Below are positions 3,969 through 40,981 of a stretch of 40,981 bases of DNA, in pieces. The notes under the pieces were generated by a model. The model made no database searches and was not told the origin of the DNA. It worked only from the letters and a program-made list of their open reading frames with translations. The translations under genes were made by a program, and so were the position numbers. Within the stretch, counting starts at the first letter, position 1, and each line of letters begins with the position of its first letter. The DNA is taken from sequence record NC_025445.1. One strand, written 5' to 3'. The stretch comes from Escherichia phage J8-65.

Positions 3969-4004
3969 ATGGCAATCATGCCATAACCTACTGGAGTATT
4001 GAAC

Positions 4005-4418
4005 ATGACTAAACTCGTACTGATTCACGGCATCGCTGGTGAGAAATTTGACGACGGTATCTCTGCACCTGTGCTGGCGCTGGAAGGTGAAGAGACCTTC
4101 GCTGTGCTGCAAGGTCTGGCTGAGGGTAGCGATATGGTACTGGCATCAGAAACAATTATCGAACAAGCCAGCGCAATCCGTGAGGCCGAGCACCTGCGTG
4201 GTGTAGCCGCAACGCTCGGTCACTGCGCTGGTAACGGCGGCCTGCGTGGGCATTCGGTCGGCGGTGTATTCCCCTGCGTAATCTTCTCGAAGGGCAACCC
4301 ACATGTGCATCTCGACTGGTGTTTCCTCGCACCGAACGGCGATGAGTTCGACGGCTTCGTAAGTTATGAAGATGCGTATGCAGCCGCGCAACAATGGCTG
4401 GAGGAAAGAGAGGTATAG
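4005..4418 (+). CDS. hypothetical protein (137 aa)
   Basis: ATG 4005 with GGAG RBS (ORF-track start 3999 is TTG). Confidence 0.6.
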   Translation: MTKLVLIHGIAGEKFDDGISAPVLALEGEETFAVLQGLAEGSDMVLASETIIEQASAIREAEHLRGVAATLGHCAGNGGLRGHSVGGVFPCVIFSKGNPHVHLDWCFLAPNGDEFDGFVSYEDAYAAAQQWLEEREV

Positions 4419-4419
4419 T

Positions 4420-4716
4420 ATGAGCAGAAGTGCTAAGTGGGATGCGTTGGTTCAGTGGGTGAAGGACAGCTTCGGCCCACCACCACAGCGCGTGGAAGTT
4501 GCAGACCCTGAGCCATTCGAGTACGTGACCAAGACCAGTGAGCAACTGGAGATTGGTGACTACATAGTAGCGTACTCTGGTTATGTGCAGCGCATCGGTG
4601 CCGTCGAGTATGATGGCAAACGACTGGTCGTTACGAAGGCAGGCCATGCTCCTGAGTATGAGTTCTACGCCTACGAGAATGACAAGTTCTCTATCCGTAA
4701 AGTAAAAGGTAAATAA
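4420..4716 (+). CDS. hypothetical protein (98 aa)
   Basis: ATG 4420 after GAGGAAAGAGAGG RBS, abuts upstream stop. Confidence 0.55.
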   Translation: MSRSAKWDALVQWVKDSFGPPPQRVEVADPEPFEYVTKTSEQLEIGDYIVAYSGYVQRIGAVEYDGKRLVVTKAGHAPEYEFYAYENDKFSIRKVKGK

Positions 4717-36632: not shown

Positions 36633-38392
36633 TGGATTTACAACGCCGCATGGTGATGGCAGGAATCGTTCGCGCACACTACGAGAACAACTTCCCGCTG
36701 TTCCTGCATGACTACTTCGCATGGCTGGGCTTTGACCTCACTGAAATGCAGCTCGATATTGGCCGCTACATGGCCGACCGGACGCTCAAGAACAAGTGCG
36801 TCATGGCTCAGCGCGGTGAGGCCAAGTCCACCATCGGCATTGCCCGTGCCCTGTATGAGTTCGTCCAGATGCCTAACGCCACCGTGCTGCTGGTATCTGG
36901 TTCTGACGACTATGCGGGTACGCTCTCGCACGCCATCGTATCTGCCATTATGCAATGGGACAGGTTGGAATGGCTGCGCCCTGAAACTCGCGCTGGCGCA
37001 CGTACCTCTTATACAGACGGTTTCGATGTACACCACGCATTTCGTATTCCTGATAAACAGCCCTCTGTCAAAGCGGTCGGTATCTTCGGCCAGTTGCAGG
37101 GGAACCACGTATCGCTGTTGATTGCCGATGACGTGGAGACTACCAGTAACGGTAGCTCTCCTGCCAACCGCGCCCGTATCAACACCCTGACCAAAGAGTT
37201 CGCGGCTATCGCCAACGACGGCGCAGAGATTCTGTACCTCGGCACGCCGCAGACTCAGGATTCCATCTACAACACGCTCCCGCAGCGTGGCTTCGACGTT
37301 CGCATCTGGCCCGGTCGTTTCCCAACGGTTGAGGAAGAAGAACGCTACGGCGGCTGTCTGGCCCCGTGGATTAAGCAGAAGATGGATGGCCACCCTGAAC
37401 TGCGTACTGGTTACGGTATCCTTGGGAACCGTGGTGCGCAGACTGACCCTCAGCGTTACTCCGAAGAGAAGCAGCTACAGAACGAACGAGACTACCAGCA
37501 GGCAGGCTTCCAGCTACAGTTCATGCTGGACACGTCGCTGTCAGATGCACTGAAACAGACTCTGCATATCCGGGATGTTATCTTCTTCCACGGCTCGCCG
37601 CAGTCTGCACCGGAGTATCTGCACTGGTCGAATCATTCGCGTCACTTGGCCGAGCTGCCAATGGACTTCCCACTCGCTCGCGCCCAGCTCTATCTGGCCG
37701 CTGACTTCTCTGAGACGTATGTACCATTCACGAATACCAAGGCGTTTCTTGACCCTGCTGGTGGTGGGTCGGACGAATCCGTTCTCTTCGCCACAGCTTC
37801 TATCGGCCCGTTTATCCACGTCATCGGTATGCACGTCTACCACGGCGGCCAGACGGAAGAGAACATCAAGGCGGCGGTAGAGTGGTGCCACGAGCTGGGT
37901 GTCCAGCACATCACCATTGAGGACAACATGGGCCACGGTGCCGTGACCAACATGTACCGTGGTGAGATTAAGCGTCAAGGACTGACAATCGGCTGTGAGG
38001 GTATTTACTCCAGCGGCCAGAAAGAAGTGCGTATCATCAATCGGTTGAGTCCTATCCTCCAGCGCCACCGCGTGGTAATCCACTGGTCGGTTGTTGAGGA
38101 AGACCTGCGCCTGTGCCGGGCCATGAACAACGGTGGCCGGGAATATAGCCTGTTCTGGCAGATGCAGAACTTGACGCAGGACAAAGGCTCCATTCCGCAC
38201 GATGACCGCATCGAAACCCTATCCGCTGCCGTGTATCTCCACGCCGAGGTACTCCAGCAAGACGAACATGAAGAGGCCCAAAAGCGTGAAGTGGCCGCCG
38301 CTCGTGAGTTTGTTGCCAACCCAATGGGGTACGACGACTCGAAGTGGCGCAGTCATAAGCGTGTCCGTGGCACTCGTCGGAGAATCCGCTAA
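36632..38392 (+). CDS. terminase large subunit (586 aa)
   Basis: same length as T7 gp19; ATPase-like N-terminus and DPAGGGSDES nuclease-like motif. Confidence 0.85.
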   Translation: MDLQRRMVMAGIVRAHYENNFPLFLHDYFAWLGFDLTEMQLDIGRYMADRTLKNKCVMAQRGEAKSTIGIARALYEFVQMPNATVLLVSGSDDYAGTLSHAIVSAIMQWDRLEWLRPETRAGARTSYTDGFDVHHAFRIPDKQPSVKAVGIFGQLQGNHVSLLIADDVETTSNGSSPANRARINTLTKEFAAIANDGAEILYLGTPQTQDSIYNTLPQRGFDVRIWPGRFPTVEEEERYGGCLAPWIKQKMDGHPELRTGYGILGNRGAQTDPQRYSEEKQLQNERDYQQAGFQLQFMLDTSLSDALKQTLHIRDVIFFHGSPQSAPEYLHWSNHSRHLAELPMDFPLARAQLYLAADFSETYVPFTNTKAFLDPAGGGSDESVLFATASIGPFIHVIGMHVYHGGQTEENIKAAVEWCHELGVQHITIEDNMGHGAVTNMYRGEIKRQGLTIGCEGIYSSGQKEVRIINRLSPILQRHRVVIHWSVVEEDLRLCRAMNNGGREYSLFWQMQNLTQDKGSIPHDDRIETLSAAVYLHAEVLQQDEHEEAQKREVAAAREFVANPMGYDDSKWRSHKRVRGTRRRIR

Positions 38393-39063
38393 TGTCTTTG
38401 ATTTCTATCACTAATCAGCAGCGGTACGATATTGGCTACCGTGCCAACATCGCCGCCAATCTGACCCAACGCTTCGTGAACAACACGAAGACACTGACGG
38501 CTGAGCAGGCTGCGCCAATCGACGCGGCCATTACCCAGCTCATGACGGCTCTGGAAGCCGCTGGCTACACCTCTGTACCGGAAGGCTCTGCCATCGTCGC
38601 AGACGGCGCTGCAACCACTGTGGTGAACGCGAACGGTACTGTGCAGAAGGCTGCCACCTTCGACGTTAACGGTGAGACGGTTACTGTCGCCCTGCCTGCT
38701 ACTGTCGGTATGAAGTCCAACAACGACTCCATCTCTGTGCAGAACGTGAATGGTGCGGCTGGTGTAACCTCCACCTCGTACGTGGACAGCAACGGTGTAC
38801 TGGTCGCCGCCCGGCTGCCAGCAACCACGGCTGTAATCGCCAGTGGCAACAACATCCAGATTCGCAACTCCGCTGGCACCGCCATCGGTAACGCGACCTT
38901 CACCGTATCCAACGGTGTCATCACGTACGGTACACTTCCTGCGACCATTGCTGGCGTAGCGAACGGTGCCACCCTCACTGGTGTAGCGCCGACTGGCACG
39001 TACACCAATACCGTAACCTTCACTGTCGCTGGTGGTGTTATCACTGGCATTGCACTGTCCTAA
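38392..39063 (+). CDS. beta-rich repeat protein, possible fibrous or receptor-binding accessory (223 aa)
   Basis: three internal repeats (ATFDVNGETVTVALPAT / ATFTVSNGVITYGTLPAT / VTFTVAGGVITGIAL); Thr/Val/Gly/Ala-rich. Confidence 0.5.
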   Translation: MSLISITNQQRYDIGYRANIAANLTQRFVNNTKTLTAEQAAPIDAAITQLMTALEAAGYTSVPEGSAIVADGAATTVVNANGTVQKAATFDVNGETVTVALPATVGMKSNNDSISVQNVNGAAGVTSTSYVDSNGVLVAARLPATTAVIASGNNIQIRNSAGTAIGNATFTVSNGVITYGTLPATIAGVANGATLTGVAPTGTYTNTVTFTVAGGVITGIALS

Positions 39064-39074
39064 CGGGAGATTTT

Positions 39075-39260
39075 ATGTCCTTAGCAACTTCTACCGCCGC
39101 TGAGCGTGCGGGACTGGTGGCGGCCTGCAACATGCTGGCCAAATACCTCAACGTGTACACGGAAGACTACCACCTGAATACGGCTGACACTGACCTGCTG
39201 GCTGAGCATCAGGTGTACATCGACCGTGTGAAAGCAGCTACGGCTGCCATCGACGCATAA
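39075..39260 (+). CDS. hypothetical protein (61 aa)
   Basis: GGGAG RBS; no TM segment. Confidence 0.5.
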   Translation: MSLATSTAAERAGLVAACNMLAKYLNVYTEDYHLNTADTDLLAEHQVYIDRVKAATAAIDA

Positions 39261-39270
39261 GAGGTAGCGT

Positions 39271-39762
39271 ATGAAACTGTCTCGGCTATTGGCCGGGGCA
39301 GTCCTCTCATTGTCTCTGACTTTGACGGGCTGCTCCGCAACTAGCGCACTGTCTGCTGTAACTTCGGCTGTCTCTCCTAACAAGCCGGAACTGACGGCAC
39401 AGGTAGGTGCAGAGAACACGAAGCAAGGCATCGGTGTGACTGCGAAACAGTCCGACGAAACCGAAGTCGGTGACGTATCAGGTAACGCGAAAGTGGATAC
39501 CGCTAAACAGGGTAGTAACGCTACGACCGTCAAGGACGTTACAGGCGGCTCTGTAAACGCTTCTAAGCAGGGGTCTCAGATGACCCAAGGGAACGTACAG
39601 GCTAAGACTGTTATCGTCTCACAGAGCGACCCACGCAGCCTATTGTGGGCATTTGGCATGGGCCTTACGTGTATTCTTGGTTTGGTAATGTGGTTTGTAC
39701 CATCTCCGTGGAAGAGGAAGGTAAGAGATGACGGAAGCAAAACGAAAGGAGCCGACTCCTAA
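39271..39762 (+). CDS. candidate unimolecular spanin: lipoprotein with C-terminal TM helix (163 aa)
   Basis: N-terminal signal with lipobox LTLTGC; C-terminal LLWAFGMGLTCILGLVMWFV TM segment then basic tail; topology as phage T1 gp11. Confidence 0.55.
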   Translation: MKLSRLLAGAVLSLSLTLTGCSATSALSAVTSAVSPNKPELTAQVGAENTKQGIGVTAKQSDETEVGDVSGNAKVDTAKQGSNATTVKDVTGGSVNASKQGSQMTQGNVQAKTVIVSQSDPRSLLWAFGMGLTCILGLVMWFVPSPWKRKVRDDGSKTKGADS

Positions 39763-40114
39763 CATCCACTCGCGTATGGGTGCAGTGGAGGCTCGTATGC
39801 AGACCGTAGAACTACGCCTCGACAAACACGAAGTGCAAATCGCTAACCTTGAGAAAGGCGACGCTGCGATGCTCACGAAGCTGGCTGAGAACGACTCGCG
39901 CTGGCAGCAGGTTCAGCAGCAGCTCTTGGTGGTCGAGCAGATTCAGGATATCCAGAGAACTATGAGCCATATCGGTAAGTTGTTTACGGCGGCAGCACAC
40001 GCCGTCAAATGGTGCCTGTTAACCGCATCCCTGTGCAGCGGTGTGTATTTAGCAATTAAGGCTGGCGACCTCACAGCTCTCCAGTCCTTTATCACAAGCA
40101 TTATGGGGATGTAA
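39728..40114 (+). CDS. lysis-cassette membrane protein, candidate atypical holin (128 aa)
   Basis: GAGGAAGG RBS; ~85-aa coiled-coil-like N-terminus then one hydrophobic segment WCLLTASLCSGVYLAI; sits between spanin and endolysin. Confidence 0.45.
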   Translation: MTEAKRKEPTPNIHSRMGAVEARMQTVELRLDKHEVQIANLEKGDAAMLTKLAENDSRWQQVQQQLLVVEQIQDIQRTMSHIGKLFTAAAHAVKWCLLTASLCSGVYLAIKAGDLTALQSFITSIMGM

Positions 40115-40650
40115 TGACTAACTTTGAAATCTGTATGAAGTTCACCGGGCTGGCAGAAGGCGGGTACACCAAGCTGCCCGGTGACACTGGAGGGGAAACG
40201 AATCATGGAATTAGCGACGCTCGTGATGGCAAACTGGATGGCCGAATTTGTGGTGTCCCTACTGGGCTTGGTGGCTCTATTTGTGTGCCTGTCAAACAGC
40301 TCACCAAAGAGCAAGCCAACGCTATCTACCGGGCCGAGTATTTCGACCCCATCAAAGGTGACGAGCTACACCCTGCGATTGCATGTGCCGTGTTCGACTA
40401 CGGTGTCAACTCCGGTATCAGCCGTGCGGCGAAAGCTCTACAGCGGGTATGCGGCGTTGCACAAGACGGGGTTATTGGCCCTGCAACCGTGGCAGCAGCC
40501 AAACGTCTGGAACCTCACTCCGCAGCAGCATCCATCTGTGACCTTCGTATTGCGTTCCTAAAGGCTTCTACAGCCCCGACAATCGTTCGGTATAGGGATG
40601 CCTTGGTTGCCCGTGCAAAACGCTGTAGCGCGTACTGTGCGACGTTATAG
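40114..40650 (+). CDS. endolysin, GH108 muramidase with PG_binding_3-like C-terminal domain (178 aa)
   Basis: N-terminal LAEGGYTKLPGDTGGETNHGI matches the GH108 EGGY motif; C-terminal region resembles PG_binding_3; no N-terminal SAR/TM segment. Confidence 0.75.
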   Translation: MTNFEICMKFTGLAEGGYTKLPGDTGGETNHGISDARDGKLDGRICGVPTGLGGSICVPVKQLTKEQANAIYRAEYFDPIKGDELHPAIACAVFDYGVNSGISRAAKALQRVCGVAQDGVIGPATVAAAKRLEPHSAAASICDLRIAFLKASTAPTIVRYRDALVARAKRCSAYCATL

Positions 40651-40722
40651 GGGCATTGAAAGCTAGGACATTGAACAGGCGTTTCCCGGCTTGAAAATTG
40701 ACTATTTGTGCGTGGGCCTCCC

Positions 40723-40981
40723 TCGACCCGAAGGAGCGCCTGCGCCCCCGTACGCCTGTGCGCGTGCGCGTGCATGACGTGTGCGCATTATGCGTGCGTG
40801 CCTGCGCGTGCGGTATTGCTCGCGTGCGTGCGGTATAGTTCGCGCGTGCCCGTTTCCATTGTCGCGGTGTGGTGCTGTGTGGTGCTGCGTCCTGCTGCTG
40901 CGTGCTGCGCCACTGCTACCACTGGACGCGCCTGCGCTGGGCTGCTGGTGCTGGGCGGTGCTGCTGTGTGTATCGGTGGCT
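40723..40981. repeat. right direct terminal repeat (DTR)
   Basis: identical to 1-259; window ends at last repeat base so the true DTR could be longer. Confidence 0.85.

Follow-up and report, generated by a model that had tools for sequence, protein, structure and literature searches.

Coliphage N4 gp61, an N-acetylmuramidase, is the founding member of glycoside hydrolase family 108 (GH108) (Stojkovic and Rothman-Denes, 2007). In the Brucella abortus enzyme SagA, a T4-lysozyme-like triad (Glu17/Asp26/Thr31) is combined with a pocket for diaminopimelic acid (DAP) made of Asp111, Val113, Gly115, Lys117 and Thr118; N-acetylglucosamine (GlcNAc) is held by Y65 and Y69 and additionally contacted from helix alpha2, where T39 forms a hydrogen bond with the sugar and I35 packs on its acetyl group (PMC8334348). 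GH108 endolysins are under development as enzybiotics against Gram-negative bacteria. Here we describe the endolysin gene of Escherichia phage J8-65, analysed in a window that comprises the whole 40,981-nucleotide sequence record NC_025445.1 and is the complete genome of a T7-like Bonnellvirus (Autographiviridae). The predicted muramidase carries, between its catalytic loop and the conserved LT helix, a putative beta-hairpin with two cysteines. The gene is already known and correctly annotated, and the loop variant is minor and undescribed: in the literature on Bonnellvirus, on the LIMEzero endolysin and on GH108 endolysins, no experimental characterisation of the protein, of its Bonnellvirus and Limezerovirus counterparts or of the loop was found.

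Identity and fold of the endolysin

The open reading frame (ORF) list gives the endolysin as 178 amino acids (aa) between an ATG start and a TAG stop (Table 1). The initial annotation had recognised a GH108-type endolysin in the letters, and this was confirmed by Pfam, PHROG, PDB sequence and fold matches and by the annotation of the relatives as endolysins. The Pfam profile PF05838 (Glyco_hydro_108) matched with E=1.5e-21 and 77.1 bits against a cut-off of 21.2, aligning residues 12-101 with profile positions 5-85 of 85, and PHROG 315 'endolysin' matched with E=2e-39. The best PDB sequence match was SagA (7DNP, E=1.5e-23), and further relatives were N. meningitidis NMB1012 (2IKB/2IS5), P. gingivalis PG_0293 (2NR7) and Sen1395/TtsA (6V3Z/6V40). 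The AlphaFold2 model, built with a 70-sequence alignment (A2) as input, had a mean predicted local distance difference test (pLDDT) of 95 and a predicted template modelling score (pTM) of 0.89. In a Foldseek search of this model against PDB the top 15 matches were all SagA, NMB1012, Sen1395, TtsA or PG_0293, and the comparison with SagA 7DNP gave a template modelling score (TM) of 0.78 over the whole chain at 34% identity. With the family profile, the EGGY motif plus triad and the two-domain lysozyme-like fold of SagA, TtsA and NMB1012 all present, the identity of the protein as a canonical GH108 endolysin, a full-length muramidase of the SagA/TtsA/NMB1012 type, is close to certain. The score against the NCBIfam 'holin-associated N-acetylmuramidase' equivalog (59.9 bits) was far under the cut-off of 240, which places the J8-65 enzyme in a different GH108 subfamily.

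The phmmer alignment equates E15/D24/T29 with SagA E17/D26/T31 and T4 lysozyme E11/D20/T26 (triad from PMC8334348), all three being invariant in A2, and the invariant Y72 and Y76 correspond to SagA Y65 and Y69. The C-terminus had been likened to a PG_binding_3 domain, a claim that stands on the fold match to SagA/TtsA and on the DGxxGxxT motif but not on the Pfam score: PF09374 gave 21.8 bits, under its gathering score of 24.6, with only positions 2-54 of 76 matched. The alignment to SagA nevertheless extends into this domain, through residue 157, and the modelled C-terminal part is a SagA/TtsA-like helical bundle with a DGxxGxxT DAP pocket. Residues D118, V120, G122, A124 and T125 occupy the SagA DAP-pocket positions, and D118, G119, G122 and T125 are nearly invariant in A2. 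Having both the catalytic triad and the DAP-pocket motif intact, the protein is a predicted N-acetylmuramidase.

The endolysin shares 100% identity with smaasur_39, an annotated 'endolysin' from Escherichia phage smaasur, and 88-93% with its counterparts in 17 other bonnellvirus-like phages, whose hosts are Escherichia, Enterobacter, Kosakonia, Cronobacter and Pantoea; identity to the counterpart in Pantoea phage LIMEzero is 63.5%. The gene and its relatives are named in GenBank either 'endolysin' or 'glycoside hydrolase family 108 protein'.

Table 1. Features of the endolysin, its lysis cassette and the right end of the window.
Feature	Position in the window	Strand	Residues or size	Evidence
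Endolysin gene, GH108 N-acetylmuramidase-type	40114..40650	+	178 aa	Pfam, PHROG, smaasur_39, AlphaFold2, Foldseek
GH108 catalytic domain	40147..40416	+	12-101	Pfam PF05838
Catalytic loop: EGGY (E15-Y18), D24, T29	40156..40200	+	15-29	phmmer alignment to 7DNP
Subfamily signature GISDARDGKLDG	40207..40242	+	32-43	alignment A1
Inserted beta-hairpin RICGVPTGLGGSICVP (predicted)	40243..40290	+	44-59	AlphaFold2/DSSP, alignment gaps
Cys46 and Cys57	40249-40251; 40282-40284	+	46; 57	within beta-hairpin
C-terminal helical PG_binding_3-like domain	40417..40647	+	102-178	fold match, DAP motif, SagA alignment
DAP-pocket motif DGVIGPAT	40465-40488	+	D118-T125	alignment to SagA DAP site D111-T118
Unimolecular spanin, T1 gp11 family	39271..39762	+	163 aa	PHROG 1804 'Rz-like spanin' E=6e-37, LTGC lipobox
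Candidate holin/holin-associated protein	39728..40114	+	128 aa	position in cassette
Protein rich in Ala/Thr/Val/Gly	38392-39063	+	223 aa	weak 'virion structural protein' PHROG match
ORF downstream of the 223-aa gene	39075-39260	+	61 aa	PHROG 9732
Direct terminal repeat	1-259; 40723-40981		259 bp	exact identity

Size and borders of the linker insertion

The linker was delimited by two conserved elements, beginning with the Ile of GI and ending with the Leu of the LT helix (I33-L63 in the J8-65 endolysin), which gives 31 residues. Its length was counted from MAFFT columns in two samples, both of them biased, namely 213 database proteins and 81 loci (80 from IMG/VR plus the smaasur region); a profile search with A2 recovered mostly near-identical marine 170-aa proteins, which raised the numbers and added little diversity. 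The 213 proteins fell into lengths of 14 (12 sequences), 18 (138), 22 (35), 23 (8), 24-27 (5), 28 (4) and 31 residues (11), and the J8-65 query together with the 81 loci into lengths of 13-14 (46), 18 (16), 23 (9), 28 (5) and 31 (6). The junction is length-variable across the family in both samples, and the 31-residue form is the longest seen in either. Linkers of 31 residues and Cys-free linkers of 26-28 residues occurred only in the Bonnellvirus/LIMEzero clade, apart from three distant proteins with 28 residues (P0038, L024 and L039, see below). Judged by sequence, the 31-residue linker is the top of a length continuum (14, 18, 22-23, 28, 31) and no unique event.

The size of the excess depends on the reference chosen: it amounts to nine residues against the Pfam consensus (residues 12-101 make 90 aa against 81 profile positions) and equally against SagA 7DNP, to 13 against NMB1012, and to 17 if the yardstick is the 14-residue class, the most frequent one in viral contigs of IMG/VR. 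The initial annotation had counted 15-20 extra residues with two Cys between the catalytic motif and the LTKEQA helix. That there is an insertion relative to typical GH108 proteins was upheld by the family alignment, which had been set as the check beforehand: the segment is not a family standard, and no relative outside the Bonnellvirus/Limezerovirus-like clade has so long a linker. The count itself agrees with the shortest, 14-residue class but is too high against Pfam and SagA (nine) or NMB1012 (13). The strings that had been quoted, LAEGGYTKLPGDTGGETNHGI (residues 13-33), DGKLDGRICGVPTGLGGSICVPV (38-60) and LTKEQA (63-68), are all present in the protein, but the 23-residue segment had been drawn too wide, since DGKLDG at its start aligns with SagA helix alpha2 and VPVKQ at its end with the conserved lead-in of the LT helix. 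The true insert covers approximately residues 44-59, a segment where the alignments show gaps in every solved homologue and in each relative from outside the clade. Structure prediction, a further check envisaged, showed these residues, fewer than had been quoted, as a beta-hairpin in the AlphaFold2 model.

The beta-hairpin and its paired cysteines

According to DSSP on the AlphaFold2 model, the hairpin consists of strands 44-49 and 55-59 joined by the turn TGLGG, and it was modelled with pLDDT values of 91-93 (10-residue blocks). The tip residues 50, 52, 53 and 55 vary even among bonnellviruses, while the C, G, V and P anchors are conserved. Among 25 sequences of the clade, 13 have Cys at both positions 46 and 57 and the others at neither, so that a single Cys was found in 0/25; the Cys-free pairs are Ser/Asn, Ser/Ser, Ser/Pro, Thr/Lys, Arg/His and Asp/Asp. 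This both-or-neither pattern, which holds in 25/25, suggests a cross-strand disulfide. In a neighbour-joining tree computed without the loop columns, a crude tree with no support values, the Cys/Cys protein P0009 stands beside the Thr/Lys protein P0012 and apart from the Bonnellvirus Cys/Cys group, a placement by which the paired-Cys state would have been gained or lost at least twice.

With positions 46 and 57 paired, one face of the hairpin is hydrophobic (I45, G47, I56, V58) and the other is formed by C46, C57, V48 and S55, and the latter face turns polar in the Cys-free homologues. We infer from the model that this register would fit a solvent-exposed cross-strand Cys46-Cys57 disulfide.

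The endolysin contains eight Cys in total (4.5%), at positions 7, 46, 57, 91, 113, 142, 171 and 175. A rough survey of the ORFs in the window puts it above every other genuine phage gene in Cys content; the few ORFs that exceed it are either located in the GC-rich terminal region or contained within larger genes. Outside the hairpin, C7, C113, C142 and C171 are conserved throughout the Bonnellvirus/LIMEzero clade, and C91 and C175 are confined to the bonnellvirus-like sequences. A four-Cys zinc site, made of C46 and C57 together with C171/C175 or with C7/C91, was rejected because these residues do not co-vary in their presence: in P0008, C175 occurs in the absence of C46/C57, and P0009 lacks C7, C91 and C175 but has C46/C57.

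The GISDxRDGxxDG motif and distant relatives

Directly ahead of the hairpin lies a motif, GISDxRDGxxDG, that is better conserved than the hairpin itself. It is invariant in 17/17 sequences of alignment A1, including P0038 at only 38% identity, the invariant residues being G32, I33, S34, D35, R37, D38, G39, D42 and G43, and it recurs in the IMG/VR proteins L024 and L039, where the match starts at 2501 in each locus. The motif takes the place of SagA helix alpha2, with R37 at the position of SagA T39. An EF-hand/DxDxDG calcium site within the J8-65 sequence SDARDGKLDG was tried and discarded, as S34-D42 fits only positions 5, 6 and 9 (3/5 of the consensus).

The three distant proteins differ from J8-65 at the hairpin site, where P0038 reads D-L-D-S-D-G-K-G-D, L039 D-I-N-G-D-G-K-P-D and L024 D-V-N-G-D-S-K-P-D. 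The consensus D-x-D/N-x-D-G-x-x-D, which we take to be a calcium-loop pattern of the integrin/FG-GAP type, is complete in P0038 and L039 and has Ser for Gly in L024. In the model of P0038, two short strands flank a nine-residue loop at this site with pLDDT 87-88. P0038 is a phage or prophage endolysin; its gene (positions 4001-4513 of locus L082) lies on a 49-kb contig between tail-fibre and integrase genes, in a temperate-phage context that also includes a repressor. From these sequences, the alpha2-alpha3 junction could host hairpins of three kinds, with a stabilising disulfide, with stabilising calcium or without either.

Lysis cassette and genome context

The endolysin is the last gene ahead of the right terminal repeat. 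Such a direct repeat at both ends is typical of T7-like phages and identifies the window as a complete phage genome. The right end of the window (38000-40981) is 97.5% identical to Escherichia phage smaasur, which GenBank assigns to Autographiviridae, genus Bonnellvirus, species Bonnellvirus J865. Both the terminal repeat and the adjoining inner sequence are rich in GC and contain low-complexity runs of the GCGTGC/GCTGCTG type, and these runs produce a spurious 163-aa ORF (68-559) with 13% Cys.

Upstream of the endolysin lies a unimolecular spanin (u-spanin) with a C-terminal transmembrane domain (TMD; hydropathy 2.0 at residues 124-143), the GenBank relatives of which are labelled 'Rz1-like' or 'Rz-like spanin'. 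The u-spanins of J8-65 and LIMEzero have been listed as unusually long representatives of the T1 gp11 family, in which these two phages are the only ones without a cassette of pinholin and signal-anchor-release (SAR) endolysin (Kongari et al., 2018, PMC6139136). Between the two genes, a 128-aa ORF shares 35 nucleotides (nt) with the u-spanin gene and a single nt with the endolysin start (TAATG), the latter overlap suggesting translational coupling with the endolysin. Its product has a coiled-coil N-terminus and one weak C-terminal TMD (hydropathy maximum 1.56, residues 92-110); it matches PHROG 35530 (function unknown) and, weakly and below threshold, XhlA, the PBSX holin-associated protein. 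The PHROG 35530 profile begins at Met24, so the true start of this ORF may be 39797. The ORF is unannotated in all relatives and atypical for a holin. We regard its product, by position only, as a candidate holin or holin-associated protein, and no other holin candidate is present in the cassette.

The N-terminus of the endolysin is helix alpha1 of the fold and bears the charged residues E5, K9 and E15. No N-terminal hydrophobic segment was detected, the highest 19-residue Kyte-Doolittle mean anywhere in the protein being 1.08; there is accordingly no signal peptide or SAR domain. The hallmark of SAR endolysins, a Gly/Ala-rich and weakly hydrophobic transmembrane segment of some 20 residues at the N-terminus, is missing, and what was found, namely neither signal nor SAR sequence and a cassette with a u-spanin and a one-TMD protein, is the configuration of a canonical holin-dependent endolysin.

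Further upstream, the 223-aa protein has no Cys. The 61-aa ORF directly downstream of its gene matches the N-terminal approximately 56 positions of PHROG 9732, the family that the 223-aa protein also matches, and it looks like a second copy of the N-terminal module of the 223-aa gene or a remnant of that gene.

Discussion

We consider it rather probable that the J8-65 protein is a canonical holin-dependent Bonnellvirus endolysin with a lineage-specific, most likely peripheral hairpin; the reserve in this judgement concerns the role of the hairpin and not the identity of the gene. The enzyme would consist of an N-terminal flap domain bearing E15/D24/T29 and a C-terminal domain holding the stem peptide in the DAP pocket D118-T125. 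Lacking a signal or SAR sequence, it would accumulate in the cytoplasm until the neighbouring membrane protein opened the inner membrane, then reach the wall and attack the sacculus, after which the u-spanin would break the outer membrane, an order of events taken from established knowledge of lysis cassettes. The 16-residue hairpin (44-59) would have grown at the alpha2-alpha3 junction, whose length varies across the family, and would pack its hydrophobic face (I45, G47, I56, V58) on the catalytic domain; in oxidising surroundings a Cys46-Cys57 disulfide could staple it. SagA and TtsA, with linkers of 18-22 residues, are active muramidases, so catalysis in this family can do without the additional hairpin. 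Together with the variable tips and with the Cys-free or shortened forms that serve viable phages such as LIMEzero, this argues for an embellishment at a permissive site, and a peripheral position, a cross-strand disulfide and the lack of a catalytic role are what we infer for the hairpin.

Several observations weigh against this view. The invariant SDxRDGxxDG replaces the very SagA helix that touches GlcNAc, so the region may belong to the substrate groove and not to the periphery. The strands could also pair in the alternative register 46:58, which would set the two Cys on opposite faces of the modelled hairpin. An endolysin made in the cytoplasm acts within seconds of its release, so that in vivo a disulfide might never be formed, or might be of no consequence. 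The unusual Cys richness, treated above as incidental, hints at redox chemistry, and the assignment of the 128-aa neighbour as a holin rests on its position and one weak TMD.

The first of these points leads to the alternative that SDxRDGxxDG and the hairpin together form a functional extension of the groove, making glycan contacts on the GlcNAc side and tuning affinity or specificity for enterobacterial peptidoglycan. R37 and I33 align with the SagA GlcNAc-contact residues T39 and I35, and the invariance of S34, D35, R37, D38, G39, D42 and G43 down to 38% identity is more than would be expected of a passive loop. The hairpin part of the proposal fares worse, being poorly conserved outside Bonnellvirus, shortened in the LIMEzero-like proteins and replaced in P0012, P0014 and P0038; moreover, the substrate specificity of TtsA maps to its C-terminal domain, and the catalytic domain is exchangeable. 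On balance we think this explanation unlikely, although it is the main rival. The hairpin might instead sense the compartment, a disulfide (or Ca2+ in the DxDxDGxxD relatives) rigidifying it after release and switching the enzyme to full activity. Disulfide-controlled P1 Lyz and the Ca2+-dependent T5 endolysin are precedents for such behaviour, and the idea would account for the strict both-or-neither rule at Cys46/Cys57, for the endolysin being the most Cys-rich genuine phage protein, and for the D-x-D/N-x-D-G/S-x-x-D sequences of P0038, L024 and L039 at the same site, with modelled strands around the loop in P0038. It is nonetheless improbable: the enzyme passes through no SAR or membrane-tethered stage calling for such control, presumably functional endolysins of viable phages (LIMEzero for one) have Ser/Asn, Ser/Ser or Ser/Pro at these positions, no Cys lies close to the catalytic Glu in the sequence, and the calcium reading is a motif resemblance only. 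Its generalised form, in which the junction would be a swappable 'periplasm-only' module, locked by a disulfide or by Ca2+ outside the reducing, low-calcium cytoplasm and gating full muralytic activity, strikes us as distinctly improbable.

Two further explanations concern host defence and membrane anchoring. That the hairpin reshapes the surroundings of the cleft and thereby blocks periplasmic lysozyme inhibitors of the host (Ivy, MliC/PliC, PhiA-like) is pure speculation and very improbable: the insert does sit in the catalytic flap domain, and SagA has a genetically defined PliC/MliC-like inhibitor, PhiA, both circumstantial points, but PhiA neither bound nor inhibited SagA in vitro (PMC8334348). 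No inhibitor of GH108 enzymes is known from E. coli. An internal SAR-like tether in the Gly/Ser/Cys-rich stretch 45-60, holding the enzyme inactive, with its catalytic residues across the membrane, until depolarisation, would be located in the most hydrophobic 19-mer of the endolysin. The mean hydropathy of 1.08 is, however, only about half that of a SAR domain, by our own estimate for P1 Lyz, and the stretch has only 16 uncharged residues, two Pro and five Gly among them. Four Pro occur there in LIMEzero-type homologues, and AlphaFold2 folds the stretch confidently as a soluble beta-hairpin. All other u-spanins of the T1 gp11 family go with pinholin/SAR-endolysin cassettes, but J8-65 and LIMEzero are the very phages singled out as exceptions (PMC6139136). 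Such a tether is effectively excluded.

A canonical endolysin with a peripheral hairpin has little import for basic biology, and the modest value of the finding is practical, as an engineering site in GH108 enzybiotics. In this subfamily the catalytic domain accommodates up to 17 inserted residues at its alpha2-alpha3 junction, which makes the junction a natural site for loop grafting or engineering, for example for stabilisation by a disulfide or by calcium. If the disulfide affects activity, enzyme produced recombinantly in the E. coli cytoplasm would under-perform.

Comparison with described enzymes

The J8-65 endolysin has in common with SagA (7DNP) the two-domain clamp, the catalytic triad, the DAP-pocket motif and the Tyr pair (SagA Y65/Y69, here Y72/Y76). 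It differs from SagA, which has a 22-residue linker and an ordinary helix alpha2 (LATLSAWEG), by SDARDGKLDG in place of that helix and by a two-Cys hairpin that makes the linker nine residues longer; SagA, furthermore, is an autolysin of a bacterial type IV secretion system and not a phage lysis enzyme. With N4 gp61 it shares the family (PF05838), the EGGY motif and the function of an E. coli phage endolysin, whereas the NCBIfam score (59.9 vs 240 bits) assigns it to a different subfamily. S. Typhi TtsA and S. Enteritidis Sen1395 (6V40, 6V3Z) resemble it in fold (Foldseek E ~1e-5) and in the PG_binding_3 domain with its DAP pocket, but have a stretch approximately 10 residues shorter from the catalytic loop to the LT helix and only 24-26% identity (Foldseek alignment); these enzymes are phage-derived, act in type 10 secretion and are specialised for LD-crosslinked peptidoglycan and toxin export. 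The closest known counterparts are the endolysins of Bonnellvirus and Limezerovirus (smaasur, Lidtsur, LIMEzero), which stand in the same cassette of u-spanin, membrane protein and endolysin at the right genome end, and among which the LIMEzero type is set apart by a hairpin that is three residues shorter, Cys-free and Pro-rich.

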